Source: a virus
Lineage: Duplodnaviria > Caudoviricetes
Reading direction: 5' to 3' (one strand)
DNA: 64,000 nt
IMG/VR virus record: IMGVR_UViG_3300014205_000200
Span: 25,162 to 89,161 of that record
Part shown: positions 11,800 through 27,756 of the stretch, one piece after another
Numbering within the stretch: position 1 is the first letter of the stretch
Layout of the letters: each line of letters begins with the position of its first letter
The notes under the pieces: model-generated
What the model saw: only the letters and a program-made list of their open reading frames with translations
What the model was told of the DNA's origin: nothing
Database searches by the model: none
Program-made: the position numbers and the translations under genes

Positions 11800-11967
11800 A
11801 TGGAACGGACAGTTGAGCAGATCAGGTTGGAGCTGGAGGAAGCGGCCCTCCGGCACGCGATGGGTGGTGGGTCGGCAGACCTGGACCGCCTGGCGCGCGA
11901 GCTACTGACGCGGGTTCAGCAGGACGCCACGGGCGACCTGGTGTTCGAGGCCTTGGAGGCGGCGTGA
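11800..11967 (+). CDS. 55-aa hypothetical protein (not in ORF track)
   Basis: GGAGGAGG SD; stop overlaps the GTG of the next gene. Confidence 0.55.
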   Translation: MERTVEQIRLELEEAALRHAMGGGSADLDRLARELLTRVQQDATGDLVFEALEAA

Positions 11968-12857
11968 CGGCAGTCTTGAACGTGAACGATCTCGATACCG
12001 AGCGGCTCCGGGATCTCCGGCGGTCGCTCGGTATCGGGCTCAAGATGGGCCGACTCCGGATGACGACCAGCCACACGGCCTTCACCGAAGCGGTCGTGGC
12101 TGATGAGAAGGGTCGGCCGATCCGATCCGCCAGCATCCACCGGATCTGGGACGCTCACTTTGAAGCCTGCCGGGCGGCCGGGCTCTACTGCGCGATCGTC
12201 GCCCCCTTCGGCCACGGCAAGACGGTGCGGAACATCGTCAGCCGGGCCAGTTACGAGATCGGGCGGGACGTGAACCAACGGATTAAGCTCGTCAGCTCGG
12301 TCGACAACAACGCCAAGCACCGCGTGATGGCGGTCAGCAGCATCCTCAAGAAGGCGGCCTACCGTCGCCTTTACCCGCACGTGCGCGAGATGACGGCCAA
12401 GGAGGCGCGGACCAGCGGCGCCCCGAAGGAGTGGACGCAGCACAGCATCTACCTGAAGCGACCCGGCTTCTCGATCGACCCGACCCTCCAGGCGTTCGGC
12501 GTCCTCGGCTCGGGCGTCGGTGCCCGGTGCGACGGCTACTTCTTCGACGACGTGGTGGACTTCCGGAACACGCTCGAGAAGCCGGCCCTTCGGGAGAAGG
12601 TGATCGACGCGATCGACAACGTCTGGCTGTCGCGACTCGAGCCCTGGGGGTGGGTGATGTACGTCGGGACGCCCTGGCACGAGTCGGACGCGACCCACTG
12701 GATCCTGAAGCAGAAGGGCTGGTCGATCCTGTGGCAGAACATCAAATCCGACTTCAGCTGCATCGAGCAGAAGGTCTACAACCCTCCGCCCAACTACCCG
12801 ATCCCGGCCTACAGCCGGGTCGTTGGCGACTCGATCAAGAGCGAGCGTTGGGTCTGA
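11964..12857 (+). CDS. terL: terminase large subunit, N-terminal ATPase domain only
   Basis: Walker A APFGHGKT, Walker B GARCDGYFFDDVVD, coupling region VGTPWHESD; stops before any nuclease domain. Confidence 0.85.
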   Translation: MTAVLNVNDLDTERLRDLRRSLGIGLKMGRLRMTTSHTAFTEAVVADEKGRPIRSASIHRIWDAHFEACRAAGLYCAIVAPFGHGKTVRNIVSRASYEIGRDVNQRIKLVSSVDNNAKHRVMAVSSILKKAAYRRLYPHVREMTAKEARTSGAPKEWTQHSIYLKRPGFSIDPTLQAFGVLGSGVGARCDGYFFDDVVDFRNTLEKPALREKVIDAIDNVWLSRLEPWGWVMYVGTPWHESDATHWILKQKGWSILWQNIKSDFSCIEQKVYNPPPNYPIPAYSRVVGDSIKSERWV

Positions 12858-12883
12858 CGGCGAGGTGGTGGGCTGCTGACCTC

Positions 12884-12899
12884 GAGAACGCGCGTTCTC
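12884..12899. repeat. 16-bp palindrome copy 3, abutting a GGGAAGAT box
   Basis: exact match. Confidence 0.95.
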
Positions 12900-12915
12900 G
12901 GGGGAAGATGGGGGT

Positions 12916-13266
12916 ATGGAACGAGGATCGTGCCTGACGCTCACCGCCCTGGTTAAAGCCCTGGAGAAGTTCGACCCTGACCAGGTGGTGTCGGCCGGGT
13001 TCGGTTCCGCGGATTCGTATCGGGGCTATTACGAAGATCTCGCCTTTGCGCCCGGGCGCGAGACGACGGTTCGCCAGATGATGATGGTCGCCCGGGCGGC
13101 GGAAGGTCAGACCTTCGAGGCCTACAAGGGCGGAAGCTACCGGGCCACCGGGGAGACGCTCTGCTGGTTGGCCGACTGGGGTAAGTTGGGTGAGCCGCTC
13201 ACGTTGGAGCGACTCCTGTCGATGGTGCTCGGTCCGATCGTTCCGCCCGAGAAGTCGGAGGGTTGA
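12916..13266 (+). CDS. hypothetical phage protein
   Basis: SYRGYYEDLAF...YKGG; GGGAAGAT box 6 nt upstream. Confidence 0.65.
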   Translation: MERGSCLTLTALVKALEKFDPDQVVSAGFGSADSYRGYYEDLAFAPGRETTVRQMMMVARAAEGQTFEAYKGGSYRATGETLCWLADWGKLGEPLTLERLLSMVLGPIVPPEKSEG

Positions 13267-13268
13267 CG

Positions 13269-13592
13269 ATGGAGTCCGAATTCCAAACCGAGCGGGAGGC
13301 GGAGCGGACCAGCTATCGGGTCTCGACCGGCGACGTCATCCGTCGGGCCCTGATGGAGTTCTTTGCTCGCGAGGGTTGCCCGGTCTCAACCGAGCCCGGG
13401 CCCGACACCCCGATTCCGCGCGGCTACCCCGGGACGCCGGTTCCACGGCCGCCAGTTGTGTCCGTCCTGCCCGGGCGGGAGGAGCGATTGGAGGCGGAGC
13501 GTCGCCGGCTGATGGCGCTGGCGAACGACGATCCGGCCTTCGGGTGGGACTTGAAGCGAGTCGAACTGCAGCTGGCCAGTTTGGAGGAGTAG
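13269..13592 (+). CDS. hypothetical protein
   Basis: GGAGG upstream. Confidence 0.55.
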   Translation: MESEFQTEREAERTSYRVSTGDVIRRALMEFFAREGCPVSTEPGPDTPIPRGYPGTPVPRPPVVSVLPGREERLEAERRRLMALANDDPAFGWDLKRVELQLASLEE

Positions 13593-13594
13593 TC

Positions 13595-14017
13595 ATGACC
13601 GCAATCAACAGCCCTTCTGAGGTGTCGTCCGTCGACTACGGCCCGGTGCAGGCGCGCTACTGGGACGTGACCGACGAAGTGCTGACGACGATGGCGGACT
13701 GTCTGGGGGTTCGTTGGCCGGACGAAGAGGCGGCGACGATCCGCCACTACCTGGCCGCTACCTTTCAGGAGGTGACCCAGGGGAAGATGGGGGCGACCGA
13801 CAGCCAGGACCCCGGGCGTAGCGCCGACCGGGTCTGCCGTTGCTTCAGCCCGGGCGCCTCGGCCGGGGGTCAGTCACCGGGGCGACCTGAACCCAACGGG
13901 GGATCGATGAAGAAGGTTTGCGACGGCGGCCCGACGGTGGAGTTCGGATCCGGCGTGGCGACGATGGAGTGGTACGAGGCCCGGGCGTGCGAGTGGGCGC
14001 TGGACCGGGCGGGTTGA
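13595..14017 (+). CDS. hypothetical protein; boundary with the downstream HTH segment unclear
   Basis: GGAGGAG SD before ATG 13595; in frame with ATG 13907. Confidence 0.4.
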   Translation: MTAINSPSEVSSVDYGPVQARYWDVTDEVLTTMADCLGVRWPDEEAATIRHYLAATFQEVTQGKMGATDSQDPGRSADRVCRCFSPGASAGGQSPGRPEPNGGSMKKVCDGGPTVEFGSGVATMEWYEARACEWALDRAG

Positions 14018-14146
14018 AGCGTCCAGCGGGCGGCCCGGATGCTCAACATCGGGCGCGCGACCCTGTACCGCAACATTCGGCGGTACGGTTTGGAGCGGTT
14101 GGTGGTTCGCGTTCGTCCGGTTCCTTCGCCGGCCTCGGGTGAGTGA
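13907..14146 (+). pseudogene. Fis-type helix-turn-helix protein with an in-frame TGA at 14015-14017
   Basis: reads ...EARACEWALDRAG*SVQRAARMLNIGRATLYRNIRRYGLE in one frame. Confidence 0.65.
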
Positions 14147-14369
14147 CGATGCGGGCGTGACGGCCCGATCGCTCGTGCAGGCACTCCGTCGCATCCCGTC
14201 CGTCGTCGAGGTTCAGACCTTCGATCGCCCGGCCGGCGGAGTGGAGGTTCGGCTCTGGGTCTACGAGGGCCCGGGGCCGACCGACCTGTGGTTCGGCCAG
14301 CTGGCGGTCCGCCACCTTGGCCTCGAGCTGGCCAGCTTCGATCTCTACCGGATCCCCCGGGTGGACTAG
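14139..14369 (+). CDS. small hypothetical protein
   Basis: ORF filling the gap. Confidence 0.45.
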   Translation: MSDDAGVTARSLVQALRRIPSVVEVQTFDRPAGGVEVRLWVYEGPGPTDLWFGQLAVRHLGLELASFDLYRIPRVD

Positions 14370-14373
14370 GGCC

Positions 14374-14389
14374 GAGAACGCGCGTTCTT
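14374..14389. repeat. palindrome copy 4 (15/16) inside a larger inverted repeat
   Basis: GAGAACGCGCGTTCTT flanked by GTGGACTA (14361-14368) and TAGTCCAC (14393-14400). Confidence 0.9.
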
Positions 14390-14425
14390 GTTTAGTCCAC
14401 CCGTCCGAAGGGAAGATGGGTGCCG

Positions 14426-14665
14426 ATGAGCAGCCCCGACGACGAGAAGGTCAACCACCCACCGCACTACGGCGGCGACACCACCTACGAGGTGATCAAG
14501 GTCCTGGACGCCTGGCAGATTGGGTTCACGCTCGGCAACGTGGTCAAGTACGTCGCCCGGGCGGGGAAGAAGGGCGACGAGTCATCGTTGGTCGATCTCA
14601 AGAAGGCGGCCTGGTACCTGGCGCACGAGATCGAACGACGGGAGAAGGCCGAAGCTGGTCGGTGA
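14426..14665 (+). CDS. DUF3310-like phage protein
   Basis: VNHPPHY, FTLGNVVKYVARAGKK, DLKKAAWYL. Confidence 0.85.
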   Translation: MSSPDDEKVNHPPHYGGDTTYEVIKVLDAWQIGFTLGNVVKYVARAGKKGDESSLVDLKKAAWYLAHEIERREKAEAGR

Positions 14666-15282
14666 TGGACCATCGCCGCTACCGGCCGCCCTTCTGGAAA
14701 TCCAAGGACCGGGGCCCGAACGGCCGTCGGCTGTGCCGCCAGTGCGGGACCGAGGTACCGAAGGGCCGGCAGACCTGGTGTAGTAAGGCGTGCGTCGACC
14801 ACTACACCGACCGGACGCCGGCCGGGTTCCGGAAGGCCGTCCTGGACGCCTCGGACGGCCGGTGTGCGCTGTGCGGGTGGGATGTCCGCTGGTTGATTGC
14901 GCGGTACGATCGGATCCTGAGGCGTCAGTCGCGGCTCGTCGGCCGGTGGTTCGATCGGGAGCAGGCGGCTCTCCGGCGGGCCCTCCGCCATCCGGGCCGC
15001 CGTCACCGCCCTCGGTCGTACCCCCGGCGGTGGTTGGGCTCGTGGTTGAGGGGGTGGCTCGCCCGACGGGGCGTCGACCTGTCGCGGTCGCTCCTGGAGG
15101 CCGACCACACGGTCCCGCTGATCGAGGGCGGGGACTTCGGTACCGCCAACGGTCGGGCGCTCTGCCGGCCCTGCCACAAGGCCCAGACGGCCGATCTGGC
15201 GAAGCGTCGGGCGGTCGGGCGGACGAGGCCCCGGCGGGTGCGCTCCTGGGGGGCGGGGCAGGGGGGAAGATCGAATCCATGA
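14665..15282 (+). CDS. HNH endonuclease
   Basis: CRQC, CSKAC, CALC, EADHTVPLIEGG, NGRALCRPCHKAQT. Confidence 0.85.
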   Translation: MDHRRYRPPFWKSKDRGPNGRRLCRQCGTEVPKGRQTWCSKACVDHYTDRTPAGFRKAVLDASDGRCALCGWDVRWLIARYDRILRRQSRLVGRWFDREQAALRRALRHPGRRHRPRSYPRRWLGSWLRGWLARRGVDLSRSLLEADHTVPLIEGGDFGTANGRALCRPCHKAQTADLAKRRAVGRTRPRRVRSWGAGQGGRSNP

Positions 15283-15494
15283 AGGCGATCAAAGGTATTC
15301 AGGTGGACGTCTACCCCGACCGGAGCGCGACCGGTTGGAACTTCCTGGTTCAGCGCGAGGCCCCGACGCCGGAGGGCGAGCCTCACCTGAGCATGAGCGG
15401 GCACGCGGTCGAGCGGGCTCACGCGCTCGCGATGGCGGAGCGGATGGCGAAGGTGCTACGACTTGAGCTACGGGGCTTCGGGGTGAAGCTGTGA
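15279..15494 (+). CDS. small hypothetical protein
   Basis: GGGAAGAT box 7 nt upstream. Confidence 0.55.
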   Translation: MKAIKGIQVDVYPDRSATGWNFLVQREAPTPEGEPHLSMSGHAVERAHALAMAERMAKVLRLELRGFGVKL

Positions 15495-16063
15495 TGGAGC
15501 CGCTCGACCGGCTGAAGGACATGATCTCCCGAGTGGGCTTCAGGGACCTGGTGTTGAGCGAGGGAAAGAAGGCGCATCAGGGTGTCCGGTTCTCAACCGA
15601 CGACGACGGGCCGGGGATCGTGGTCTCGGCGGCGGGAACTCGTTCCGTCGGTGGTGAGATCCCGGAAGGGATCTGCGTCGTCGACGTGGACTACGCTCTC
15701 TTTTGGCCCGAGCAGTGGGGCCTGCTGTCGGCCCGCAAGCTCGAGACGCTGACGGTCCAGAGCCCTCACGGGATTCATCTCTACTACCAGCTCCCCGAGC
15801 CGGCGAAGCGCATGTTCCCCTACCGGGTCGTCGATCTGATGAACAGCCGGCTCGTGATGGGGACCGGGGGTGTGGTGCAGTCGGGCGGTGGCCCGACGAA
15901 GCGGTCGGTCGACTTCCTGGGGGTGGGGTGGATCGTCATTCCGCCATCGCCCGGCTACATCCTCGTCAACCCGAGCCCGATCGCCCGGCTACCGCTCCCG
16001 ATCGCCCGGTCGGTGTTGGGGGCCTTCTGGGACGATCGGGGAGCGTCGATGTGGTGGCGGTGA
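15491..16063 (+). CDS. stand-alone Prim-Pol (bifunctional primase/polymerase N-terminal) domain protein
   Basis: CVVDVD, TVQSPHGIHLYY, VDFLGVGWIVIPPSPGY, IARLP. Confidence 0.7.
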   Translation: MMEPLDRLKDMISRVGFRDLVLSEGKKAHQGVRFSTDDDGPGIVVSAAGTRSVGGEIPEGICVVDVDYALFWPEQWGLLSARKLETLTVQSPHGIHLYYQLPEPAKRMFPYRVVDLMNSRLVMGTGGVVQSGGGPTKRSVDFLGVGWIVIPPSPGYILVNPSPIARLPLPIARSVLGAFWDDRGASMWWR

Positions 16064-16377
16064 CGGCCTTCCGGATCGTCGCCCTGGCGGCCATCTTCAG
16101 CTACGCTCTGTGGGCGTTGCTGAGGTGATGGTTGCCGTCGATACGATCCACCCCGACCTGTCGCCGCCTTCGCCGTCGTCGCATCCGGACGATGGAGAAG
16201 GACCCCTGGTCGGGCGTCTACCAGCCGGGCGACTGGCGGTGGACGACCGAGCGATGTGGCGCCATGGTGGACGAAGCCGGACAGGAGTGCCCGGCCTGCG
16301 CGGTCGGCCTTCAGACGGACGATGACCAACTGATCCCCGAGATCGACCCGACCGGGTAGCGGGGGGAAGATGGTCCC

Positions 16378-16596
16378 GTGATGGAACCAGAGTCCCCCTG
16401 TCTGCATTGTGGCCAGCTGTTGGCCGGGCTGGCGCTCGTGCGCGAGTGCCCGATCTGCGCGATGGTGGGCTTGTGCCGGGCCTGCCTGGAGGAGCACGAG
16501 GGCGACTGCCAGGTGGGGGACGATCCCGACGTAGCGGTCGATCCCGGGCCCGACGGCGCGGACGAGCTGGACCACGACATCTGGGAGGTCGAATGA
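16378..16596 (+). CDS. small Cys-rich acidic protein
   Basis: CLHC, CPIC, CRAC; GGGAAGAT box 6 nt upstream. Confidence 0.55.
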   Translation: MMEPESPCLHCGQLLAGLALVRECPICAMVGLCRACLEEHEGDCQVGDDPDVAVDPGPDGADELDHDIWEVE

Positions 16597-16805
16597 TCGA
16601 CCCTGAAGCGCAGGAAGCGTGGGACCGCCAGGTCGCCCACATGAAGTCGGTCGGCCAGTTGGATCCGTGCCCGGATGGGTCCTACTTCTGGCACGTAAGC
16701 GGCCAGGTGTGGCACGTGAAACCTTCTCTAAGCCTGAAGACGATCGTCTGGCATCTTCATCGGTCGGCGGTCGAACCGACGCAAGAAGGTGGCTTGCAAC
16801 CGTAA
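16593..16805 (+). CDS. small hypothetical protein
   Basis: GGAGG SD, ATGA overlap. Confidence 0.5.
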   Translation: MIDPEAQEAWDRQVAHMKSVGQLDPCPDGSYFWHVSGQVWHVKPSLSLKTIVWHLHRSAVEPTQEGGLQP

Positions 16806-16829
16806 CGTTCTGCCCTTCATTCTCGGTGC

Positions 16830-17360
16830 ATGACGGAGGACATCCGCCCCCCGCCGTTGACGCCCGTCGAGGAGGCGGCGATGGATCCGCGTGCTCGGTT
16901 CCGTTTGATCGAGCAGCGCCACCAGCAGGTCTTCCGGTCCCACTCGGGCGGTCCGGAGGCGGTCCTGGCCGCCTACCACTACGCGACGATGTACTTCCTG
17001 CGCGACACCGGCTTCCTGCTGGCCGAGTTGAAGCGGGCCTGGCAGGCGTTGGATCTGAAGGCACCGGCCGGGTCGCGGGAGGCGCCGAGTGCCCCGGTCT
17101 ACGTTCAGGGTCCGGTGCCGGTCCTGCCTCCTAGGCCTCATCAACCCAGCCAGCCGGTCCCGACGATGAAGCGGCCGGTCTCGGGGCCGACTCCGCCGCC
17201 GCCCCGGTACCCGCCCCCGCTGCCGGTCGATTCGGAGCTGATCAGCCGCATCAGCCAGGCGGTCGCGCGGGAGATCACCGGGCACCGGCAGATCGAGAGC
17301 GACGACGTGGATGAGCTGTTCCGCGAGCTTCAGGGGCCGGACCCGTCCGACGTGGAATGA
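16830..17360 (+). CDS. proline-rich hypothetical protein
   Basis: 176-aa ORF with a Pro-rich linker. Confidence 0.55.
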   Translation: MTEDIRPPPLTPVEEAAMDPRARFRLIEQRHQQVFRSHSGGPEAVLAAYHYATMYFLRDTGFLLAELKRAWQALDLKAPAGSREAPSAPVYVQGPVPVLPPRPHQPSQPVPTMKRPVSGPTPPPPRYPPPLPVDSELISRISQAVAREITGHRQIESDDVDELFRELQGPDPSDVE

Positions 17361-17374
17361 GAACGCGCGTTCTC
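17359..17374. repeat. 16-bp palindrome copy 5, abutting a GGGAAGAT box
   Basis: exact match overlapping the TGA. Confidence 0.95.
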
Positions 17375-17411
17375 GGGGGAAGATGGCGTCGATGTTGTTA
17401 GAGGGAGTCGG

Positions 17412-17624
17412 GTGAAGGTGAATTCCACATGCTCGGTCTGCGGAGCGCCGGTCCAGATCGGCGATCGGATCTTCGTCTTGGTGACGGAGGACGGGCCGAC
17501 GATCTCCCACGGGTGGTGCTTCCAACACCGGAGCTTCGGCTTCGAGCCCGACCAGAACCCAACGCTCCTCCACGCGCTCGAGGCCCGGGCCCGGTTGGCC
17601 TACGACCAGACGGGGGAAGCGTGA
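17412..17624 (+). CDS. small Zn-finger-like protein
   Basis: CSVC...HGWC. Confidence 0.55.
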   Translation: MKVNSTCSVCGAPVQIGDRIFVLVTEDGPTISHGWCFQHRSFGFEPDQNPTLLHALEARARLAYDQTGEA

Positions 17625-18019
17625 ACCGCGGGCACGTCGAGGTCGTGGCGTTGATCCAGTGCGCGGCCGAGGTCTGCCTGGCGGCCCTGCAGGAGAGCGT
17701 GGGCCGGAAGCTCCTCCGCGCCCCGGTGCGGCCGGACGTCTACTACGGGTGCGTCATGAAGGCGGTCGGGCAGATCGATCTGGTGTTGCGGGTCCAGTGG
17801 GGGGCGGCCGGGATGCGGGCCGGCCCGATCGCGCTGGCGGTCCAGGCGGTCGACCTGCTGCGGCTCGGGATCACGATCGCGAACGCCAACCCGGCCGACG
17901 ACTGGCTCCCCGTCCTGGTCCGCCGGGCCCATCAGCTGACGGTCCTGGCCGGCCGGGGGAAGATGGCGATCGATGGCCCGACGAGACCCGACCGCCCTGC
18001 CGATGATGAGGAACGCTAG
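17621..18019 (+). CDS. hypothetical protein
   Basis: GTGA overlap. Confidence 0.45.
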   Translation: MNRGHVEVVALIQCAAEVCLAALQESVGRKLLRAPVRPDVYYGCVMKAVGQIDLVLRVQWGAAGMRAGPIALAVQAVDLLRLGITIANANPADDWLPVLVRRAHQLTVLAGRGKMAIDGPTRPDRPADDEER

Positions 18020-18362
18020 CCTAGCGGCGGACCAGTACCGAGGCCTGGCGGCCGACTGGCACTTCGTCGTCTGCCGGTGTGGGTCCCGCTACCGGGTGGT
18101 CGGCCGAGCGGTCTTGGTTCGGCGAGAGGGTTGCCCGAGATGCGGGCCCGACCCGGAGTGGCGCTACCGGTCGGCTGTCCGCCATCTGGTGTTCGAGGTC
18201 GAGTACTCCGGCGCCCCCGATCGGCTGGGTCGGCGTCACGCCACCGTCCGGTGGGTCGAGCCCGGCAGCGGTCTTGAACGAGGCCAGGTCTTCTTCGGCT
18301 TCCCGGAGGAGATCGAGGCCCGGCTGCCCGGGCGGCGGGTTGTCGTCGAGGCGATCCGCTGA
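17973..18362 (+). CDS. hypothetical protein with CRC...CPRC
   Basis: GGGAAGAT box 8 nt upstream. Confidence 0.5.
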   Translation: MARRDPTALPMMRNASLAADQYRGLAADWHFVVCRCGSRYRVVGRAVLVRREGCPRCGPDPEWRYRSAVRHLVFEVEYSGAPDRLGRRHATVRWVEPGSGLERGQVFFGFPEEIEARLPGRRVVVEAIR

Positions 18363-18380
18363 CGAGGGAAGATGGGGGTC

Positions 18381-19376
18381 ATGACGGAACCCCGCTTCCA
18401 TACGCTCACCCGCGAAGGCATCACGGTCAAGGTCGTGGCCGACAACCGGAACCCGGCCGGCAGTCGGCTGACGACGCTGGCCTGCACCTATCCGCGCTTC
18501 ATCCACTCAGAGGTGATGACCCACCGGGTCTTCAGCCGGAATGCCGCCAGCTCGCGTGCGATCCCGACCCGGGCCCTTCAGGACCGGGTCTGGAAGGACC
18601 CGGCCGCCCCGGTCTTCTGGGGCGCCGAGCAGAAGGGGATGCAGGCCGAAGGCGAGCTGTCGGACGAGGAGGCGGATCGCCGGTCGGTCATGAACCGCGA
18701 CGGCGGGTATGAGGACCTTACGCCTCGTCAGTACGCGCAGCAGCGGTGGTCGACCGCCCGGTTGGATATGCTGCGGGCCGCCCGTGAGCTGAGCGACCTA
18801 GGGAGCGCCCACCCGGATTGGAAGGGGGTCGGGCTCCACAAGCAGCTGGCCAACCGGCTGATCGAACCCTGGATGTCGATCACGACCCTCATCACGGCGA
18901 CCCACTGGCGGGGCTTCCTTCACCAACGGGCCCACCCGGCGGCGATGCCGGAGTTCCGCGTCCTGGCCGAGTTGATCGGGGAGGTGCTCGAGACCCGGGC
19001 GCCGGTTCAGCTCCGGTTTGGTGAGTGGCACTTGCCGTTCGTCCTCGATGCCGAGAAGGCGAACGACGTCCCGGAAGGCGCGGCCGGCTTCCGCCACCCG
19101 CTGGTGCGGATCTCCACCGGCCGGTGTGCTCGGGTCAGCTACCTGAACCACGAAGGCGTCAGCCGGCCGGACGAGGACCGGGCGCTGGCCGATCGGTTGG
19201 AGCACGCCGATCGACCGGAAGAGCCCGGGCACTGGAGCCCGTTCGAGCACCAGGCCACCGCGCTGAGCCCGTTCGGCGCGGTGCCGAACCCGACCGCCCG
19301 GTCGCTCCACGGCAATTTCCATCCGAGTTGGATCCAGCACCGGAAGCTCTTCGAGCGCGAGAACCAGGAGGGGTGA
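18381..19376 (+). CDS. thyX: flavin-dependent thymidylate synthase (ThyX/Thy1 family)
   Basis: YPRFIHSEVMTHRVFSRNAASSRAIP, HKQLANRLIEPW, STGRCARVSY, HWSPFEHQA. Confidence 0.85.
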   Translation: MTEPRFHTLTREGITVKVVADNRNPAGSRLTTLACTYPRFIHSEVMTHRVFSRNAASSRAIPTRALQDRVWKDPAAPVFWGAEQKGMQAEGELSDEEADRRSVMNRDGGYEDLTPRQYAQQRWSTARLDMLRAARELSDLGSAHPDWKGVGLHKQLANRLIEPWMSITTLITATHWRGFLHQRAHPAAMPEFRVLAELIGEVLETRAPVQLRFGEWHLPFVLDAEKANDVPEGAAGFRHPLVRISTGRCARVSYLNHEGVSRPDEDRALADRLEHADRPEEPGHWSPFEHQATALSPFGAVPNPTARSLHGNFHPSWIQHRKLFERENQEG

Positions 19377-20495: not shown

Positions 20496-20750
20496 ATGAA
20501 CCGAACGCTGCACCTCGAAGGCTACGAACCGAATTTCGCCGGGCTCGACTCCTGGGCGTTTCACACGCGGAAGGCCGAGAACGCTCGAATCGAGATCGCC
20601 CACTTCAAGGGCCGGCTCGAGGAAGAGTACGCCAACCAGCGGGCCCGGGTGCCGGGGGCCGGCCGGATGATCCAGCTGGTGCTGCTGAAGCTGGCCAGCG
20701 CGCACGAGGCGGCGGCCGATGCCGAGGAGGCGCTGGCTTGGTTGAGCTAG
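20496..20750 (+). CDS. 84-aa probable early protein
   Basis: ATG follows the module directly. Confidence 0.7.
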   Translation: MNRTLHLEGYEPNFAGLDSWAFHTRKAENARIEIAHFKGRLEEEYANQRARVPGAGRMIQLVLLKLASAHEAAADAEEALAWLS

Positions 20751-20753
20751 GCC

Positions 20754-20769
20754 GAGAACGCGCGTTCTC
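20754..20769. repeat. 16-bp palindrome copy 6
   Basis: exact match, 3 nt after TAG. Confidence 0.95.
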
Positions 20770-20845
20770 GGGGGAGGGGTGAGCCTCTCCCCCGGGGGCC
20801 GAGTGGGGCGAGTGAGCCTCAGAGGAAGAGGGGAAGGAACGACAA

Positions 20846-21250
20846 ATGAGCGGAGGAGATTTGCTTCACGTCTACACCACCACCCGGCCGGACGGCTCCG
20901 AGAGCGCCCACACGGCGGTCTTCCAAGAGCCCGACGACACGATCAAGGTCTACACCTCGTCCGGTCCGGTGATCGTCATCCGACCCGACGGCCCGGTGGT
21001 TCAGATCCTGAGGGACGCCGGCCTGGCGGCGGAGCCGGTCCTGAACGCCTCCGCCCGGCGGGCGGCCGAACGGACCCAGGCCCGGCGGTCAACCGGGCTG
21101 GTCGCCCGGGAGGCGCTGTCGGCCCGGCTGGTCGAGCGCGGGGTCGACACCTTCGAGGCGTCGCTCGATGAGCGCGGGTGGGTGGTGGTGGCGCTTTCGC
21201 CTGCGGAGGCTGGCCGGCTGGGCGACCTGCTGGGGAGGGAGGATCGATGA
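20846..21250 (+). CDS. hypothetical protein
   Basis: purine-rich SD region upstream. Confidence 0.6.
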   Translation: MSGGDLLHVYTTTRPDGSESAHTAVFQEPDDTIKVYTSSGPVIVIRPDGPVVQILRDAGLAAEPVLNASARRAAERTQARRSTGLVAREALSARLVERGVDTFEASLDERGWVVVALSPAEAGRLGDLLGREDR

Positions 21251-21570
21251 ATACCGAAATCGAGATCGGTGCCACCCCGTACGACGAGCCGTGTGCCCAG
21301 GTGGGGGAGCCGGGCTACGAGGAGCGGGCCCGGGCCGAGTGCCGGGTGTTCATCCGGCAGATCCGTCGGGCGATCGGGCCCGAACCGGCGGGCGCCCGGT
21401 TGGTAGTGCGCTCGCATTCGCACGACTTCGGCCTCTACCAGGAGGTCGGGCTTCGGTTCGACGACGATGACGAGGCCCAGGCGCGGTACGCCGCCAAGCT
21501 GGAGGACAGCGTCCCAGACCGGTGGGACGAGACCGCCCGGATCGAGCTGGGCTTGGAGGTGGGCGCGTGA
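21247..21570 (+). CDS. hypothetical phage protein
   Basis: IGATPYDEPCAQVG...HDFGLYQEV; GGAGGA SD. Confidence 0.65.
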   Translation: MNTEIEIGATPYDEPCAQVGEPGYEERARAECRVFIRQIRRAIGPEPAGARLVVRSHSHDFGLYQEVGLRFDDDDEAQARYAAKLEDSVPDRWDETARIELGLEVGA

Positions 21571-21700
21571 AGGCCAAACTACGGTGGGGCCCGGCCCTCC
21601 TGCTGTGCCCAGTCGCCGTCTTGGCGTTCGCTTGCCAGTACGGCCCGGTCGTCAACCAGGCGATCATCCTTTTACGAGCCCTGTTGAACGGGAGGTAGCG

Positions 21701-22132
21701 ATGAAGACGTACGGGTACAACGGGCTGGCGGGGTGCGTGGCGCAGGTGAAGAACCGGGAGACCGGCCGGCTGGTGGGCCTTTACCGTAACGACCAGGCCG
21801 ATCTCGACGACGATGACGGTGCGTGGTCGACCGTCTGCGAGCCGCACGGGATGCTGGTCAACCACGCGACGCTCGCGCTCGCCAGGAGCCACCTGGCGGC
21901 CCCGGGCGATTGGTGTGAGGACTGTGCCGCGCTCGCTCGCGATGGACAGGTGGCGGACGGGACGGTGTCGGTCACGTCGACCGCGCCCGAGAAGGCTCTT
22001 GAGTTCTGCCGGACGCGGCTCGGGATCTCGCCGGCCCGGATCGGGCGCCTGACGGACGCCGGCCCGGTGTCGCTCCCCGGCTTTCCGCCCGGCACCCGCC
22101 GGTTCGTCATCAGCCTGGTCGAGCGCGCCTGA
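21701..22132 (+). CDS. hypothetical protein
   Basis: GGAGG SD; VCEPHG...WCEDC. Confidence 0.6.
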   Translation: MKTYGYNGLAGCVAQVKNRETGRLVGLYRNDQADLDDDDGAWSTVCEPHGMLVNHATLALARSHLAAPGDWCEDCAALARDGQVADGTVSVTSTAPEKALEFCRTRLGISPARIGRLTDAGPVSLPGFPPGTRRFVISLVERA

Positions 22133-22138
22133 GGACCG

Positions 22139-22213
22139 CAACCCCGGGCCACCCTCCGGCTTCTACGATTGGTACGATTTCGGTTTTACGGCCTCCGACT
22201 TCGGAGGTATGAT
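22139..22213 (+). promoter_or_regulatory. variant promoter module (copy 2) with hairpin spacer and no downstream ORF
   Basis: TTTACG (22185-22190), 17-nt spacer containing CCTCCG-ACTT-CGGAGG, TATGAT (22208-22213). Confidence 0.75.
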
Positions 22214-22298
22214 GGGGGGTCAGGTTGGTTCCCGTTCGTCGCCAGGCGGCCCGGCTCGCCCGGGCGGATCCGGGCCCGGGCGGTCGCCCCCCGGGTCC

Positions 22299-22378
22299 CA
22301 ACCCCGAGCAGCGCTCCGGCTTCGACGATCGTTACGATTTCGGCTTTACGAGAACCATTTCGGCGCTATGCTCTCTTT
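22299..22378 (+). promoter_or_regulatory. 80-bp leaderless promoter module, copy 3
   Basis: same layout with several substitutions; ATG at 22379. Confidence 0.9.
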
Positions 22379-22561
22379 ATGAAGAACGAAGTGCGAGTCG
22401 AGACGGTTCGAATCATCCTCACCGAGGAGCAGAAGAAGGCGATTGCCTTCGGCGAGGACGTCATCCTGGCCTACTGGAAGACGGTCAACACGGCCAAGGG
22501 TCGCCGGATGGTCAAGAGCGTCGAGAAGAAGCTCTACTACATGCGGCTCGGGCTGGCCTAA
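22379..22561 (+). CDS. 60-aa probable early protein
   Basis: ATG follows the module directly. Confidence 0.7.
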   Translation: MKNEVRVETVRIILTEEQKKAIAFGEDVILAYWKTVNTAKGRRMVKSVEKKLYYMRLGLA

Positions 22562-22650
22562 GGCCCGGGCCTCGGGCCCCCCTCGGGGGGCCGGTTCGCC
22601 CCGCCTGGGTCCCGTTGGGACGCCGGGTTGTGGCGGTCCGTGGTCGGGCC

Positions 22651-22664
22651 GATAGCATGCTATC
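22651..22664. promoter_or_regulatory. 14-bp palindrome GATAGCATGCTATC (possible operator)
   Basis: perfect palindrome; 12/14 match at 23754-23767. Confidence 0.4.
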
Positions 22665-22710
22665 CGATCCGGGCCGGCCGGTTGGGGGACCTTGGGGGAG
22701 GCCGTTCCTA

Positions 22711-22790
22711 CAACCCCGAGCGACCCTCCGGCTTTGACGATTGGTACGATTTCGGTTTTACGGAAACGATTTCGGCGCTATGCTCTCTTT
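22711..22790 (+). promoter_or_regulatory. 80-bp leaderless promoter module, copy 4
   Basis: near-identical to copy 1; ATG at 22791. Confidence 0.9.
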
Positions 22791-23042
22791 ATGAAGAGCA
22801 AGTGGGGCAACGAGAAGCGAGAGCGAGAGAACGGCCGGTTCGCGGTGTCGGAGGCGTGCGACTGCTGTGGCAAGGGGACCGGTCGGGATTACTGCACCGA
22901 CGATGAGGTCTGCGGTGGCACGGACGGCCCGGGGTTCTTTCTCTGTGCCCGGGCACGGTGCCGGGCGAAGGTTGAGGGCCTGGGGGTCGAGGAGCGGCGG
23001 GTGCTCTACACGGCCCAGCGGGCGGCGAACCGGGCCCGCTAG
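22791..23042 (+). CDS. 83-aa Cys-rich probable early protein
   Basis: CDCC, C, C, CARARC. Confidence 0.7.
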   Translation: MKSKWGNEKRERENGRFAVSEACDCCGKGTGRDYCTDDEVCGGTDGPGFFLCARARCRAKVEGLGVEERRVLYTAQRAANRAR

Positions 23043-23089
23043 GCCCAGACGACGGAACCGGGCCCGCTAGGGCCCAGAAGGAGAACGAG

Positions 23090-23422
23090 ATGAACGAGAC
23101 CGCCAAGACTGAGGCCTACGGCTACGAGATCCTGTACCGGGGCCAGTGGGTCATGGACGCCGGTCCCCGGGCGGCGGACGCCTACCGGCTGGCGCTCCAG
23201 CTCAGCGCCCACTACGCCCACCCGGGTCTGGTGACCCTTGTCCGCATGTGGGCCACCACCCGGCCGGGCGAGCGCGCGGTCTGGATCCAGCGCCCGGTGG
23301 CGCTCTTCGTGGCCGGTCGCCAGCAGACCGGCGACCGCAGCTGGCAGTCCTTCCGGACGCCGGCCCCCGCCCCCGCCCCCCTGTCGGCCCGGTGCTTCTG
23401 GGCGGAAGTGAGGTGCTCGTGA
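23090..23422 (+). CDS. hypothetical protein
   Basis: AAGGAG SD. Confidence 0.6.
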   Translation: MNETAKTEAYGYEILYRGQWVMDAGPRAADAYRLALQLSAHYAHPGLVTLVRMWATTRPGERAVWIQRPVALFVAGRQQTGDRSWQSFRTPAPAPAPLSARCFWAEVRCS

Positions 23423-23724
23423 TCCGCCCGCTCGACCTGAGCCCCCGGGGGTTCCTTCCCGTCCGCCCGATCTCGCCGGCCGAGACCGACCCGCTGCGGG
23501 CGGTCCAGCATGGCGCCAGCTGGTGCCCGCCCGAATTCCAGGCTGACCTTGGGCGTGCTCTGGCGGAGGCCAGCCGGGTCGCCGGCTTGCTCCGGACCCA
23601 CCGGGAGGCCGACCGGGTTCTGGCCTGGCTGGGGCATGAGGGCTACGGCCCGCTGACCAGCAAACGGCTGACCGTCGAGTGCCTGCTGGTGGAGGCCTGG
23701 TTCCCCCACCGGATCGTCCGCTAG
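23419..23724 (+). CDS. hypothetical protein
   Basis: GAGG SD, GTGA overlap. Confidence 0.5.
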   Translation: MIRPLDLSPRGFLPVRPISPAETDPLRAVQHGASWCPPEFQADLGRALAEASRVAGLLRTHREADRVLAWLGHEGYGPLTSKRLTVECLLVEAWFPHRIVR

Positions 23725-23804
23725 CGGTCCCGGGCGGTCCGCCGGGCCCGGTCGGCAGCATGCTATCGGGGGCGGTGGGCCGACGCCGTGGGACCGCCGG
23801 GTCC

Positions 23805-23884
23805 CAACCCCGAGCGACCCTCCGGTTTTGACGATTGGTACGATTTCGGTTTTACGGAAACGATTTCGGCGCTATGCTCTCTTT
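23805..23884 (+). promoter_or_regulatory. 80-bp leaderless promoter module, copy 5
   Basis: near-identical to copies 1 and 4; ATG at 23885. Confidence 0.9.
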
Positions 23885-24163
23885 ATGAAGAACGAAGTGG
23901 TCAGCGAGGCGGTAAAGGTGTGCAGCGAGGCGGTTCGGGCGATTGACGCCCTCCGCGCCAGTGAGCGGTTCACCCCGTTCGCGGGTTGGTACCGGGGCGA
24001 CCACGCGAAGGCCCGGACGGCGGTCCGCCGGGCGGTCGAGGCGGTCGAGGCGATCGCCAGCTCGGAGGAGGAGAAGGAGCTGTGCCGCCTCTTCCTGGCG
24101 GCTCTTCGGAAGAAGGCTCCGCTCCCCGGTGAGCTTCGGGCCGCGCTCGTGAGGGAGGTCTAA
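23885..24163 (+). CDS. 92-aa helical probable early protein
   Basis: ATG follows the module; starts MKNEV like the 22379 product. Confidence 0.7.
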   Translation: MKNEVVSEAVKVCSEAVRAIDALRASERFTPFAGWYRGDHAKARTAVRRAVEAVEAIASSEEEKELCRLFLAALRKKAPLPGELRAALVREV

Positions 24164-24164
24164 G

Positions 24165-24341
24165 ATGCGGTACGTGATTGTCGACGGACAGGTTCTCCCG
24201 GTCGGGACCCCTGAGGAGCACCGGGCCGCCCGACTGGCGGTTGAGGCGGCCGGGCTCTTCTCGGCGGAGGTTTACGAGGGACCGGTGGCGACGGGCCTCC
24301 GGGTGTTTTGCTTGGCCCGAGTGGCCGGAGGTGCGTGGTGA
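24165..24341 (+). CDS. 58-aa hypothetical protein (not in ORF track)
   Basis: GGAGG SD; fills the gap exactly. Confidence 0.5.
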   Translation: MRYVIVDGQVLPVGTPEEHRAARLAVEAAGLFSAEVYEGPVATGLRVFCLARVAGGAW

Positions 24342-24736
24342 ACGACTACATCGGTCGAAAGAAGGAGTGCGTGATGATGGAACAGTGGAAGGCCCGGTTG
24401 TTGGCCGAGATCGATAAGGAGAGCAACGAGCTGTCGAGGCTGAACGCTCGGCACGGCCTAGAGGGGTGGCTGAATTCTTTCTGGCTCTTCGAGGAAGCCG
24501 TCGTCTGCGAGACGAAGGTGGAGCACTACAAGGCCTTGTTGCTCGCCCTCAACAAGGGTCGGATCTCGAAGAGGGAGGATTTGGCCGACTACTTGGAGCG
24601 CCTCGTCGAGCAGATGCTCGAGTGGCTTCCCGTGCGGTCTACCGACCCGGTGGCGGTCGCGATTGACGTCTATCGCCACAAGGGTCGTGAACGGTTCGTT
24701 CAGTTCATCCGCGTCTTGCTGAAGGAGGAGAGCTGA
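24338..24736 (+). CDS. helical hypothetical protein
   Basis: GGAGG SD, GTGA overlap. Confidence 0.55.
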   Translation: MNDYIGRKKECVMMEQWKARLLAEIDKESNELSRLNARHGLEGWLNSFWLFEEAVVCETKVEHYKALLLALNKGRISKREDLADYLERLVEQMLEWLPVRSTDPVAVAIDVYRHKGRERFVQFIRVLLKEES

Positions 24737-25041
24737 TGGACTGTCCGGAGTGCGGGGGCGCTGGCCAGCGATGCGTGAAGCTCCTCGGCGCCACCGATCC
24801 GGTTGATGGCCCGGTCGACTGTGGGCGGTGTGGCGGAACCGGCCAGCTGAGTACGCGCGTTCTCGCCGATCCGTTCTCCGTCCAACCGATGCCGGGCCAA
24901 CCGGCCTACACGCTCGAGGAGGCCGCCCGGGTGTCGGCTCTGGTGGAGTCGGCGGCGGAGGCGTCCGACCGCTACGGCGACGACGAGCTAGAGTACTGGG
25001 CGAGTCAGATGCGGCCCAGGCCGCGGAGGAGGGGATCGTGA
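24736..25041 (+). CDS. protein with DnaJ-type CxxCxGxG zinc-finger repeats
   Basis: CPECGGAG and CGRCGGTG. Confidence 0.6.
   Translation: MDCPECGGAGQRCVKLLGATDPVDGPVDCGRCGGTGQLSTRVLADPFSVQPMPGQPAYTLEEAARVSALVESAAEASDRYGDDELEYWASQMRPRPRRRGS
24849..24864. repeat. palindrome copy 7 (15/16, intragenic)
   Basis: GAGTACGCGCGTTCTC. Confidence 0.7.
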
Positions 25042-25895
25042 GATCGAGAGATGTGGTCGACGCCTTGATGTTCTGCTTGATGCTCGCCGGATGCGCGCTC
25101 GCGATGACGATGATCGGGTGCGCCGAACCGGCCCTGGTGGTCGGGACCTTCAACGTCCGGTACGACACCGAGCAGGACGGCCCCGACGCTTGGTCGGCCG
25201 GCCGGCGACACCGGGTCGAGCTGGCGATCCGGGCGCTCGACCCCGACGTGATGGCGATCCAGGAGCTGCTGCCTCGCCAGCTCGAGGAGCTGCGGGCCGA
25301 TCTGGCGGACGGCTGGCTGCTTGAGTCGGCCGACGCGGGCGGTTCGCCCCAGAGCAACGCGATCCTCTACCGGGGCGCCCGACTTCGGCTGACCGGTGTC
25401 GAGCGTCGGTGGCTGGGCCCCGACCCGACCATCCCGGGAAGCCGGTGGGGCGACGCCTACCCGCGGGTCGCTCTCCGGGCCTCGCTGGTCGACCGGCTGA
25501 CCGGCGAGGCGTTCCGCTTCACCGCGACCCACACGAACGGCGGAGGGCCGGCCGGCCGGGCTGAGTGGGACCAGCTGATGAAAGAGTTCGCCCCCCAGCC
25601 GGGCGACATCCTGGGGGGCGACTTCAATGAGCTGTGGGGGCCGAACGTTTGGGGCCTCGCCCCTGGGGGCCCTCGGGCGCGTGAGGCCGGCTGGGACGAC
25701 CTGGTGGGGCCGGCGACCGCACCTCCGGCCGGCTGGTCGGGCGGGCCGCCCGGTGCCGCCTGGGATCCGACCGGCCGAGTCGACTGGCTGGTGGGTGCCG
25801 GGTTCGAGGTCCTGTCTTCGACGGTGGCGCCGATCCGGGTCGACGGCCGGGCGTGTTCGGACCACTGGCCCGTGACTGCGACGGTGGTCCGATGA
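25038..25895 (+). CDS. endonuclease/exonuclease/phosphatase (EEP) family protein with a hydrophobic N-terminus
   Basis: GTFNVRYD, AIQE, THTN, GGDFN, VDWL, SDHWPV; leader LMFCLMLAGCALAMTMIGC. Confidence 0.85.
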   Translation: MRSRDVVDALMFCLMLAGCALAMTMIGCAEPALVVGTFNVRYDTEQDGPDAWSAGRRHRVELAIRALDPDVMAIQELLPRQLEELRADLADGWLLESADAGGSPQSNAILYRGARLRLTGVERRWLGPDPTIPGSRWGDAYPRVALRASLVDRLTGEAFRFTATHTNGGGPAGRAEWDQLMKEFAPQPGDILGGDFNELWGPNVWGLAPGGPRAREAGWDDLVGPATAPPAGWSGGPPGAAWDPTGRVDWLVGAGFEVLSSTVAPIRVDGRACSDHWPVTATVVR

Positions 25896-26275
25896 TCGCC
25901 GAGGACGTGCGGGGGTTCTTGCGACGGAATCGGGGCGAGTGGTCGACGACCGAATTGTGGGCCGAGTTCGACTTCAGGGTCTCGAGGGACGGGCTCTGCG
26001 ATTCCCTGGCGAGGTTGGAGCGGGCCGGCCTGGTCGCCCGGCAACTCAGCCCGGGTGGCAAACATCCCTACCGATGGTCCTCGACCGAAGCCGACACCCG
26101 GCCGCCGCTTACGCACGATCTCCATCCAGCGGACGGTCGCACGCGGGAGCAGGTGTGGGATTCGATCCAGCGTTTTTGCGACCGTCTCCGGGCCGCTACT
26201 GGCGTGGTCGATGTTCGTGAGGGGAAGATGGCGTCGGATGAAGACAAGCCTGAGCGTAGAGGGGCCGACGGTTGA
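25892..26275 (+). CDS. winged-helix DNA-binding protein
   Basis: STTELWAEF...LCDSLARLERAGLV...YRW. Confidence 0.55.
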   Translation: MIAEDVRGFLRRNRGEWSTTELWAEFDFRVSRDGLCDSLARLERAGLVARQLSPGGKHPYRWSSTEADTRPPLTHDLHPADGRTREQVWDSIQRFCDRLRAATGVVDVREGKMASDEDKPERRGADG

Positions 26276-26651
26276 AGACGGCCCGGTAGAGATCGTGGGG
26301 GTCAGCCGAGGGTCGTGGACGATCGTCCCGCACCAACCCGAGCCTGACCCCTACGCTGAGTTGCTGCGACTCGTAGACGATCCGGATCTGGTCGCACTCG
26401 CCCCTGAGTTGACGCCGGCCGATCGGGCCCGGTTCCTGTTGTCCGGGATCCGGCAGGCCGCCCGGGGCGGTCCGAAGCGAGTTCCCCACCCGGGTGCGGT
26501 GCCGATCGTCGAGGCGGCCCGCCGGTTCGTCGAGACGATCAACCGGATCAAGCCACCACTCGAGACGATGAAGTCCCTTCAAGACGAACCGGTCGACCCC
26601 GCCAGCTGGTCGGAGCTGGCGAAGCTGGCGAAAAATGAGGAGCCCGAATGA
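26238..26651 (+). CDS. hypothetical protein
   Basis: GGGAAGAT box 8 nt upstream. Confidence 0.55.
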   Translation: MKTSLSVEGPTVEDGPVEIVGVSRGSWTIVPHQPEPDPYAELLRLVDDPDLVALAPELTPADRARFLLSGIRQAARGGPKRVPHPGAVPIVEAARRFVETINRIKPPLETMKSLQDEPVDPASWSELAKLAKNEEPE

Positions 26652-26842
26652 CGCAAGCCGAGAAGTCCCAGCTGGCCCGAGAGATCTTCCTGATGCGGTT
26701 GGCGTCGCTTCCTCCGGGGGAAGGGCTCCAGCAGCACCGCCAGCAGATCGACGACGAGGCCGAGCTGGCCGCCTACGCGGTCGAGTCGTTGGCGATTTCG
26801 TTGGACGTCTACGGGGAGCGGTCGGATGCCGGCGGCGAGTGA
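26648..26842 (+). CDS. small hypothetical protein
   Basis: GAGGAG SD, ATGA overlap. Confidence 0.55.
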   Translation: MTQAEKSQLAREIFLMRLASLPPGEGLQQHRQQIDDEAELAAYAVESLAISLDVYGERSDAGGE

Positions 26843-26946
26843 TCTGTACCTGAGCTTCTGGATCTTCGCCTCGGGCTTTTCGGCCGGGATGGCGACCGTG
26901 GTGGGATTGCTTCTCTACGCTCTCTTCCGTACCAATATCGGAATCG

Positions 26947-27756
26947 ATGTCGATCCCGATCAAGCTCGCCCCCCTACCGCTATGGACCGACCGTTGGGAC
27001 GAAGCGGCCCTGAGGGAACGGCATCGTCGCAACCCTCGCCAGTTCGCCCGGGGGTTCTTCATGCAGGCGATGGTCGACGGCGAGAACACGTTTCCGTCGT
27101 TCGAGAAGTGCCGCCAGCCGGGCCTAGTGCTCGGCGATCTGATCCGCAATAGCTGGCCCTGCTTCACGGGCGTGGACCTGTCGTCGACCAAGCGACCCGG
27201 AAACGCGATCGTCACCGTCAAGCTCGACCCGATCCAGAAGCGACGCTTCCCGGTCGACATTCGGTTCGGGCGCTGGCGATCGAACGAGCTGTGCGAGGCC
27301 ATCCAGCAGGTCAACAACCAGTTCCACCCGGCCGTCATCATGGTCGAGAACAACGGCTACCAGGAGTCGCTGATCGACTGGGTGGGCGACCAGAAGAACC
27401 GGTTCGACTTTTGGATGAAGGTCGAACCGACCACCACCACGAGCGGCACCAAGGCCCACGCCGACATCGGGCTCCCCGGTTTGGAGGTGGAGTTCGCCCA
27501 CGGTGCCTGGTCGATCCCCTATTCGGAGTACGAGCACCTGACGGGCGGGGAGGGGATCGGTGCCACGAACGAGGACGAGGACGAAGAGGACGGCGCGCCC
27601 GGAACGCTGCACTCCGACTGGCGGGCCCGCCAGTGGGCCCGATGGGACTATGAGTTTCGCCATCACCCGATGGCGGCCACCAACGACGGCGTGATGGCGA
27701 CCTGGTTCGCCCGGCAGGGGATCGAGCTATATAGCGGCTACCTCCAGCCCGGGTGA
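26947..27756 (+). CDS. terL: terminase large subunit, C-terminal RNase H-like nuclease domain as a separate gene
   Basis: begins with linker-like PLWTDRW...F..FMQ; then GVDLS, VENNGYQ, GLPGLEVEF, TNDGVMATWFA; upstream in-frame stop at 26851-26853. Confidence 0.8.
   Translation: MSIPIKLAPLPLWTDRWDEAALRERHRRNPRQFARGFFMQAMVDGENTFPSFEKCRQPGLVLGDLIRNSWPCFTGVDLSSTKRPGNAIVTVKLDPIQKRRFPVDIRFGRWRSNELCEAIQQVNNQFHPAVIMVENNGYQESLIDWVGDQKNRFDFWMKVEPTTTTSGTKAHADIGLPGLEVEFAHGAWSIPYSEYEHLTGGEGIGATNEDEDEEDGAPGTLHSDWRARQWARWDYEFRHHPMAATNDGVMATWFARQGIELYSGYLQPG

Follow-up and report, generated by a model that had tools for sequence, protein, structure and literature searches.

A phage large terminase encoded as separate ATPase and nuclease genes 14 kb apart

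Two genes for one terminase

The canonical large terminase subunit (TerL) of tailed phages carries its ATPase and nuclease domains on one polypeptide. In the uncultured phage described here the two domains are encoded by two genes on the same strand, at 11964-12857 and 26947-27756, each a separate open reading frame (ORF) with its own start and stop, and 14,089 nucleotides lie between them. The phage is known from an 89,161-bp linear viral metagenomic assembly in IMG/VR (record IMGVR_UViG_3300014205_000200; 67% GC), and the window, by which we mean the whole stretch of DNA that was analysed, is its last 64 kb (64,000 nucleotides, positions 25,162 to 89,161 of the record). Nearly all genes of the window lie on the + strand, and ORFs were called from the GC content of third codon positions (GC3). 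The original prediction, made from the letters of the window, was that terL is divided into an ATPase gene and a nuclease gene about 14 kb apart, and profile searches, fold comparisons and relatives all confirm that division. The architecture is conserved, both products have terminase folds, and the catalytic residues of both are intact. Most probably, this phage uses two autonomous genes to make its large terminase as two polypeptides, which associate non-covalently.

The ATPase gene

The upstream gene (11964-12857, + strand) encodes a protein of 297 amino acids. The three motifs claimed for it can all be read in the ORF: Walker A, GHGKT, at residues 83-87 (with K86); Walker B, FFDDVVD, at 193-199 (with D195/D196); and the C motif, GTPWH, at 235-239 (with T236). 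The protein then stops, about 60 residues past the C motif, and its C-terminal tail carries the conserved motif VYNPPPNYPIP. Across 17 aligned homologues, the Walker A lysine, the Walker B pair of aspartates, and the C-motif threonine are invariant. The TerL profile phrog_38 matches the protein over profile positions 270-471 (E 4e-18), and a profile of the ATPase half itself matches the solved chains 8dgc_E (E 8e-8) and 4bij_A. The AlphaFold2 model, made with an alignment of homologues, has a predicted local distance difference test score (pLDDT) of 85.7, and the top chain found for it by Foldseek is the large terminase of phage PhiV-1 (8dgc_E, E 7e-9). In VIA-align, residues 19-291 superpose on residues 2-257 of that chain with a Z of 21.5 (root-mean-square deviation, rmsd, 3.0; 241 residues aligned), and the Z to the ATPase of T4 gp17 is 18.1. 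With its Walker A, Walker B, and C motif, the product is a TerL-type ASCE P-loop ATPase domain.

The nuclease gene

The downstream gene (26947-27756, + strand; 269 amino acids) begins at the first available start codon past an in-frame TGA at 26851-26853. Residues 1-44 form a segment of the linker or lid type, and residues 45-266 form an RNase H-like nuclease with the motifs GVD (D77), VENNGYQ (E134), and ND (D247). The start after an in-frame stop and the three motifs are just as first described. The three acidic residues are invariant in 33 aligned homologues, and the segment 1-44 is conserved as well. Profile phrog_38 matches at positions 486-628 (E 1e-8). The AlphaFold2 model, again made with an alignment of homologues, has a pLDDT of 82.2, and its top Foldseek chain is once more the PhiV-1 large terminase (E 4e-6), with a VIA-align Z of 13.6 for residues 3-269 against 243-536 of 8dgc_E. 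The nuclease core (43-266) reaches a Z of 14.9 to the TerL nucleases of E217, G20c, and D6E (rmsd 2.7-3.0; 160-169 residues aligned) and of 14.8 to HK97 TerL, with RuvC far lower at 9.4. The original prediction would have fallen had this product lacked an RNase H-like TerL fold; the fold is there, and the domain is a TerL RNase H/RuvC-like nuclease with its acidic metal-binding triad.

Two halves of one enzyme

The two phrog_38 matches follow one another along the profile. The fold alignments likewise fall on consecutive parts of one solved chain, residues 2-257 of PhiV-1 TerL for the ATPase half and 243-536 for the nuclease half, so that together the two products cover one T7-type TerL. The counterpart of residues ~1-44 of the nuclease half in one-chain enzymes stands between the nuclease and the ATPase core.

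The place of the break can be read from fused orthologues, which were obtained by an exhaustive phmmer search with the ATPase half and not from a word-indexed search. The exhaustive search gave 1,994 matches, and the best 150 of these include ATPase-only proteins of 250-320 amino acids, one-chain TerLs of 500-680 amino acids, and ATPase proteins with an intein-sized insert. The word-indexed search, used to look for longer (fused) forms of the nuclease half, returned only one weak protein of 510 amino acids. In the fused orthologue P0108 (546 amino acids), residues 14-261 are 40% identical to the ATPase half and residues 293-536 are 43% identical to the nuclease half, and the homology spans residues 35-282 of the former and 5-260 of the latter. 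Because homology in P0108 ends at 261 and resumes at 293, the break lies within a variable linker of ~31 residues, which answers the earlier call for a check of the split point in relatives. This linker is flanked by the conserved tail motif E-x-E-V-x-N-P-P-x-x-Y-P-x-P before it and by the L-x-P-(I/L)-P-L-W start of the second half, likewise conserved, after it.

The enzyme is distant from described terminases. In Pfam, neither half matches any family at E <= 1 (intein families included), and the models Terminase_6N, Terminase_6C, and TerL_ATPase have zero matches anywhere in the 89-kb contig; the clade is too divergent for these models. Against NF033889, the NCBIfam equivalog of T7-type TerL (cut-off 150 bits), the ATPase half scores 25.2 and the fused P0108 55.5, and the nuclease half has no match. 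The enzyme is thus a distant relative of the T7-type large terminase and not a member of NF033889. When 50,697 phage records were searched by tblastn, the TerL of Roseobacter phage CRP-5, at 31% identity, was the only match to the ATPase half, and there was none to the nuclease half; the fused orthologue found only T7-like and Zobellviridae terminases, at less than 32% identity. Judged by these sequence searches, none of the cultured phages in the collection is above ~31% identity.

Conservation of the split in relatives

Relatives show the same division. In protein databases, stand-alone ATPase halves (240-400 amino acids) form 17 clusters and stand-alone nuclease halves (~260 amino acids) form 78. 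The far-split layout, with both halves on the same strand and 5.5-18 kb apart, is found in at least 16 independent contigs at 35-57% protein identity. For example, in an 83-kb Logan contig the halves are 44% and 48% identical to those of the window and stand 13.3 kb apart on one strand. In IMG/VR, 80 loci were found by the nuclease profile, and both halves were mapped by hidden Markov models together with a profile search of whole records. Among these relatives, the ATPase half precedes the nuclease half on the same strand by 13.0, 5.5, 15.8, 10.5, 13.6, 15.1, 13.1, 15.3, 15.3, 15.7, 16.9, 13.9, 18.0, 8.1, and 9.5 kb; in the window the distance is 14.1 kb. The GC content of relatives runs from 47% to 70%, with far-split members L089 and L090 contrasting with L091-L093, and the far-split clade must therefore infect very different hosts.

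An intact terL elsewhere in the genome would undo this reading, and none was seen. A phrog_38 search of the whole 89-kb contig gave no match besides the two halves. Because that contig is only ~78% complete, the lack of a third terL is argued from complete relatives: in each of five relative contigs rated 100% complete, the ATPase half and the nuclease half are both found exactly once, and neither profile gives a fused match. Four of the five have the ATPase half 14-17 kb upstream; the order is inverted in the fifth (G011).

Several observations concern the halves of individual relatives. In the inverted case, a complete 82-kb genome (L022/G011:C1:67996-70533), the nuclease gene is upstream of the ATPase gene, with ~0.5-1 kb between them. 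Its nuclease match is interrupted by one TAG, and the near-identical nuclease G009:C1:43196-43923 has the same TAG; no ATPase half was found in G009, a 55-kb contig. In other relatives (P0006, P0007, P0009, P0010, P0012; e.g., L003:10001-11089), a C-terminal KTSC domain (PF13619) stands directly after the NPPxxYPxP tail of the ATPase half, where it is perhaps a docking module. In L089 (G001:C1:34350-36314) and in G006:C1:29904-31889, the ATPase half is an open frame of 666-743 amino acids in which an intein-sized insert breaks the TerL match at profile position 77, just past Walker A. The same pattern of two TerL stretches is seen in several phmmer matches of 650-790 amino acids (e.g., P0099, P0101, P0107).

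An evolutionary series

A tree of the nuclease domain was made with IQ-TREE in a quick run from 73 distinct rows, identical rows having been removed and L001, L002, L085, and the later-fetched loci left out. In this tree distant relatives are fused, and in several split lineages the two genes are adjacent or separated by 0.2-2 kb. Nearly all of the 26 rows in the supported clade to which the window belongs (SH-aLRT 97) are far-split. At least five changes to or from the fused state are required by supported branches; therefore, splitting at this linker, or its reversal, happened repeatedly. Adjacent halves are nested within the far-split clade, in L013 with a GTGA stop/start overlap and in L010 with an ATG ~15 nucleotides past the stop, and so is the inverted order of L022, with the nuclease gene first. 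The halves therefore move as independent genes. The split layout is probably ancestral to the whole clade of uncultured phages of 80-95 kb.

How the two chains may work together

When the two chains were predicted together, with alignments, the complex scored 0.85 in three runs, and the best of three controls scored 0.45. The mark used for this score is reached by 58 of 80 solved complexes and by 2 of 110 mismatched pairs, and a score of this kind speaks for likeness rather than for binding. Contacts agree among the runs to at least 91%, and the pLDDT of the partner is at least 77. The confident contacts are predicted between residues 1-44 of the nuclease chain and 257-286 of the ATPase chain, which hold its last beta-hairpin and the conserved tail; further contacts on the ATPase chain are predicted at 79-84, in the P-loop region, and at 236-245, in the C-motif region. 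Such contacts would be expected if the linker or lid segment, having moved with the nuclease gene, docks onto the ATPase core again. This is the two-chain model that had been suggested as a check.

A mechanism can be proposed from these data. The gene at 11964-12857 would give the core of the ATPase motor, and the gene at 26947-27756, just ahead of the portal module, would give the inter-domain linker or lid segment and the RNase H-like nuclease, with the break placed in the variable linker of a one-chain ancestor. The two chains would come together again non-covalently: a beta-strand and helices formed by residues ~1-44 of the nuclease chain would pair with the hairpin and tail at 257-286 of the ATPase chain and lie beside its P-loop. 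Such docking would rebuild a TerL-like protomer working on the portal, and the gap between the genes would have become a hypervariable slot for accessory genes. The original prediction had offered a naturally two-chain packaging motor as one of its two readings. The clade-wide split, the invariant catalytic residues, the break in the linker, and the controlled complex prediction support it strongly, with its function as a complex being the conditional part.

Of course, some points weigh against this reading. The complex score may come in part from solved one-chain TerLs, whose intramolecular interface the model could have memorised, and because of this, the physical association of the chains is something that we infer, as is their activity as a motor. 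No Pfam TerL family was reached by either half, and the nuclease-domain tree is a quick one. The contig is incomplete, so that for this genome the lack of a third terL rests on the complete relatives.

The two chains could also form no stable complex at all. The ATPase half alone would then make the translocating ring on the portal, in the manner of the nuclease-less gp16 of phi29, and the nuclease would be a free protein, recruited for the initiating and terminating cuts and perhaps made at another time. The halves do lie in different blocks of the genome with several palindrome-headed units between them, which makes separate regulation possible, and the extra KTSC domain on the ATPase halves of some relatives suggests other partners. 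However, the linker or lid segment stayed with the nuclease half and is conserved there, the ATPase half retains its conserved tail motif, and the fused orthologue shows that segment and tail belong to one protomer. The predicted docking of the two halves, which is of high confidence in the model, also speaks against a free nuclease. On balance, an ATPase and a nuclease working apart appear unlikely.

The second of the original readings was that the halves are joined by long-range or trans-splicing. A joined product could come from RNA trans-splicing, from a very long intron, or from a split intein of the AceL-TerL or GOS-TerL kind. There is some precedent: split-intein TerL genes occur in metagenomes (PMC11766414, PMC2677866), and intron-split terL genes are common in some phages (PMC12880540). 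The tail of the ATPase half even happens to begin with a cysteine (position 266), 32 residues before the end. Nevertheless, no Rfam family, group I and II introns included, reaches its gathering score in the 64-kb window, and there is no intein match in Pfam; the initial report that intein and intron signatures are absent stands. A natural TerL split intein requires 104-115 residues for its C-part, and fused-TerL homology reaches residue 282 of the ATPase half and resumes at residue 5 of the nuclease half. Because this homology runs nearly to both ends, a split intein could not be fitted in at the junction. A short N-intein beginning with the cysteine in the ATPase tail was considered and rejected, since Cys 266 varies among the homologues and fused TerL sequence is homologous to the tail. 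Moreover, both halves have conserved starts and stops of their own, and the DNA between them (14 kb here) is unrelated coding DNA in each relative. Joining of the halves after transcription or translation is thus very unlikely, and the splicing reading finds no support.

Least probable of all is an artefact or decay, in which the two genes would result from a chimeric assembly or from an insertion that disrupted terL in a defective phage. The contig is indeed linear, metagenomic, and incomplete, but the comparative sequence data already refute this, with the same layout recurring across different samples and assemblers in the diverged contigs counted above, every catalytic residue kept in both halves, and complete relatives that have no other match to the profile of either half.

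If two non-covalently associated chains are indeed the working form, one may ask what the split is good for. Separate chains would allow independent timing and amounts, they could escape host sensors of the intact two-domain terminase (Avs-type STAND NTPases), and the gap could act as a clade-wide slot for the exchange of accessory or anti-defence genes. The top structural match of both halves is a TerL that was solved in complex with Avs3. That the split is adaptive for such reasons is a speculative idea, to which we give a small though not negligible chance.

The gap, the palindrome, and the neighbouring genes

The gap between the halves is a variable island (12916-26842, + strand) of ~36 small ORFs on the same strand, called from GC3. 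Two of its genes belong to families of known function, thymidylate synthase (18372-19376, + strand; phrog_85, E 1e-57) and an EEP-family enzyme (24828-25895, + strand); they are the only such genes among the 24 ORFs scanned against PHROG and Pfam, and one more ORF belongs to an unnamed PHROG family. The gap had been described as holding nucleotide-metabolism and early genes. That description overstates what can be recognised, since the rest of the scanned ORFs have no match of known function. The same 24 ORFs gave no match to HNH, GIY-YIG, or LAGLIDADG endonucleases. In one relative, L004, the gap contains an HNH endonuclease gene (8218-8784), located 1.2 kb upstream of the nuclease half, which would fit with mobile elements moving through the gap.

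In the gaps of relatives, only the island ORF at 17429-18019 has a homologue (44-57% identity). The flanks are conserved: the gene before the ATPase half, both halves, the portal gene, and the head genes that follow. The gap is therefore a conserved position in which the content has turned over nearly completely.

A 16-bp palindrome, GAGAACGCGCGTTCTC, is present in 10 copies in the window, 8 of them exact, where 0 are expected. Every copy is at or close to a gene junction (4333, 6817, 12884, 14374, 17359, 20754, 24849, 27755, 37061, and 53895), and four of the copies are in the island. The copy at 12884-12899 lies 27 nucleotides past the stop of the ATPase half and is followed by a GGGGAAGATGGGGG box and the ATG of the next gene; the copy at 27755-27770 overlaps the stop codon of the nuclease half and is again followed by a GGGGAAGATGGGGG box. 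Downstream of the copies there is typically a GGGGAAGAT box and a start codon. The palindrome does follow both halves, as was noted at the outset, though it is dispersed and not specific to them, and with copies at gene junctions across the window it was rejected as a mark of the split. It is probably a phage-specific operator, a promoter, or a general signal of unit boundaries. A consensus scan for promoters and terminators over 10500-28500 did no better than shuffled sequence.

Upstream of the ATPase half there are two genes of note. An ORF of 55 amino acids (11800-11967, + strand), with high GC3 and no family match, ends in a TGA that overlaps the GTG start of the ATPase half, and this stop/start overlap suggests translational coupling of the two. 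Before it stands a gene for 329 amino acids (10798-11787, + strand) with a weak N-terminal helix-turn-helix and a long, charged, helical middle. Three relatives have homologues that immediately precede the ATPase half or are separated from it by up to 1.7 kb, and it is the only other gene that is consistently just upstream of that half in relatives. Its Pfam match to HTH_32 (20 bits) is below the cut-off, an Atlas feature match to a 'terminase small subunit' cluster is at 0.90, and there is no match in PDB or PHROG. It can be named as a candidate small terminase, as a lead only.

On the other side, an ORF of 108 codons in another frame (26826-27152, + strand) overlaps the first 200 nucleotides of the nuclease gene and has a strongly hydrophobic, transmembrane-like start. 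The gene just after the nuclease half (27794-28285) belongs to phrog_4786, annotated as 'cysteine dioxygenase'. Its homologue in relative L003 (9342-9812) is 58% identical and lies upstream of the ATPase half instead, and this different placement points to gene shuffling around the two halves. In an 88.7-kb relative (L087, 6628-10032), the genes directly upstream of the nuclease half are for a Tet_JBP dioxygenase, a TAGT glycosyltransferase, and a protein of 546 amino acids that matches Sod_Fe_C. The portal protein gene (30843-32930, + strand; phrog_64, E 1e-9; 40% identical to the protein in the portal position of a relative contig) is 3 kb downstream of the nuclease half and heads the structural module.

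Other divided terminases

The closest known system is the T7-type one-chain TerL (T7 gp19, 'DNA maturase B', and PhiV-1 TerL, 8dgc_E), the best relative of both halves in sequence and fold, with the same ATPase motifs and the same D-E-D triad. That enzyme is one chain, unlike the product of two genes 14 kb apart described here. A packaging ATPase can work without a covalently attached nuclease, as gp16 of phi29 does. The phi29 genome is protein-primed and of unit length and needs no nuclease, whereas the present phage keeps an intact TerL nuclease gene.

Interrupted terL genes are known as well. The herpesvirus gene UL15 is spliced, and introns interrupt terL in crAss-like phages and in Staphylococcus Kayviruses. 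The Jug phages also have an intron-interrupted terL (PMC12880540). In all of these, terL exons are separated by other DNA, as the halves are here; however, those exons share a transcript, and splicing yields a single mRNA and a single chain, whereas here each half is a complete gene and no intron family was found. In the 'fractured' AceL-TerL and GOS-TerL, the coding of TerL is likewise divided between two genes in uncultured phages, and split-intein parts of 25-37 and 104-115 residues ligate the products to one chain (PMC2677866, PMC11766414); the present halves differ in that they have no intein motifs and no room for an intein.

Two further cases are instructive. In the cultured Parabacteroides phage phiPDS1, the TerL domains are annotated as two coding sequences, and its authors left open whether the codon table or the assembly is the cause (PMC10773633). 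The likeness to phiPDS1 is by description only: its coding sequences are adjacent, and the two-part TerL was remarked on in passing rather than characterised. In Aeromonas phage Aeh1, nrdA is split by the free-standing homing endonuclease gene mobE, and the pieces are translated separately and thought to assemble non-covalently (PMC3045599). This case of 'genes in pieces' is the conceptual precedent: an essential phage enzyme is divided between two pieces that are translated on their own, and mobile DNA sits in the gap, to which the HNH gene of relative L004 may be compared. Unlike the single endonuclease in the gap of Aeh1, the gap here holds 5-18 kb of many unrelated accessory genes, and the split is clade-wide and old.

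A full-text search of the literature found no published characterisation of a two-gene TerL; the divided forms of terL that it found are the intron-split genes, the split-intein genes, and the remark on phiPDS1. The present clade stands out by how far apart the halves lie, by its breadth, by having both fused and adjacent intermediates for comparison, and by its hypervariable gap.

Significance

The terminase is the usual marker for the detection of phages, for completeness scoring, and for phylogeny, and half-size genes that no Pfam TerL family recognises will be overlooked or wrongly scored. The gap between the halves is also a useful place to seek accessory and counter-defence genes because it is a conserved location with almost complete gene turnover.

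For packaging-motor research, as for the annotation of phage genomes, the finding is of interest because current models of the motor in tailed phages and herpesviruses, covering both pumping and the switch to cutting, assume that ATPase and nuclease are linked in one chain. In this clade two chains appear to do the work of the motor, and its fused, adjacent-split, and far-split relatives constitute a natural experiment on whether covalent coupling is needed, on which surface holds the domains together, and on how the activity of the nuclease is controlled.

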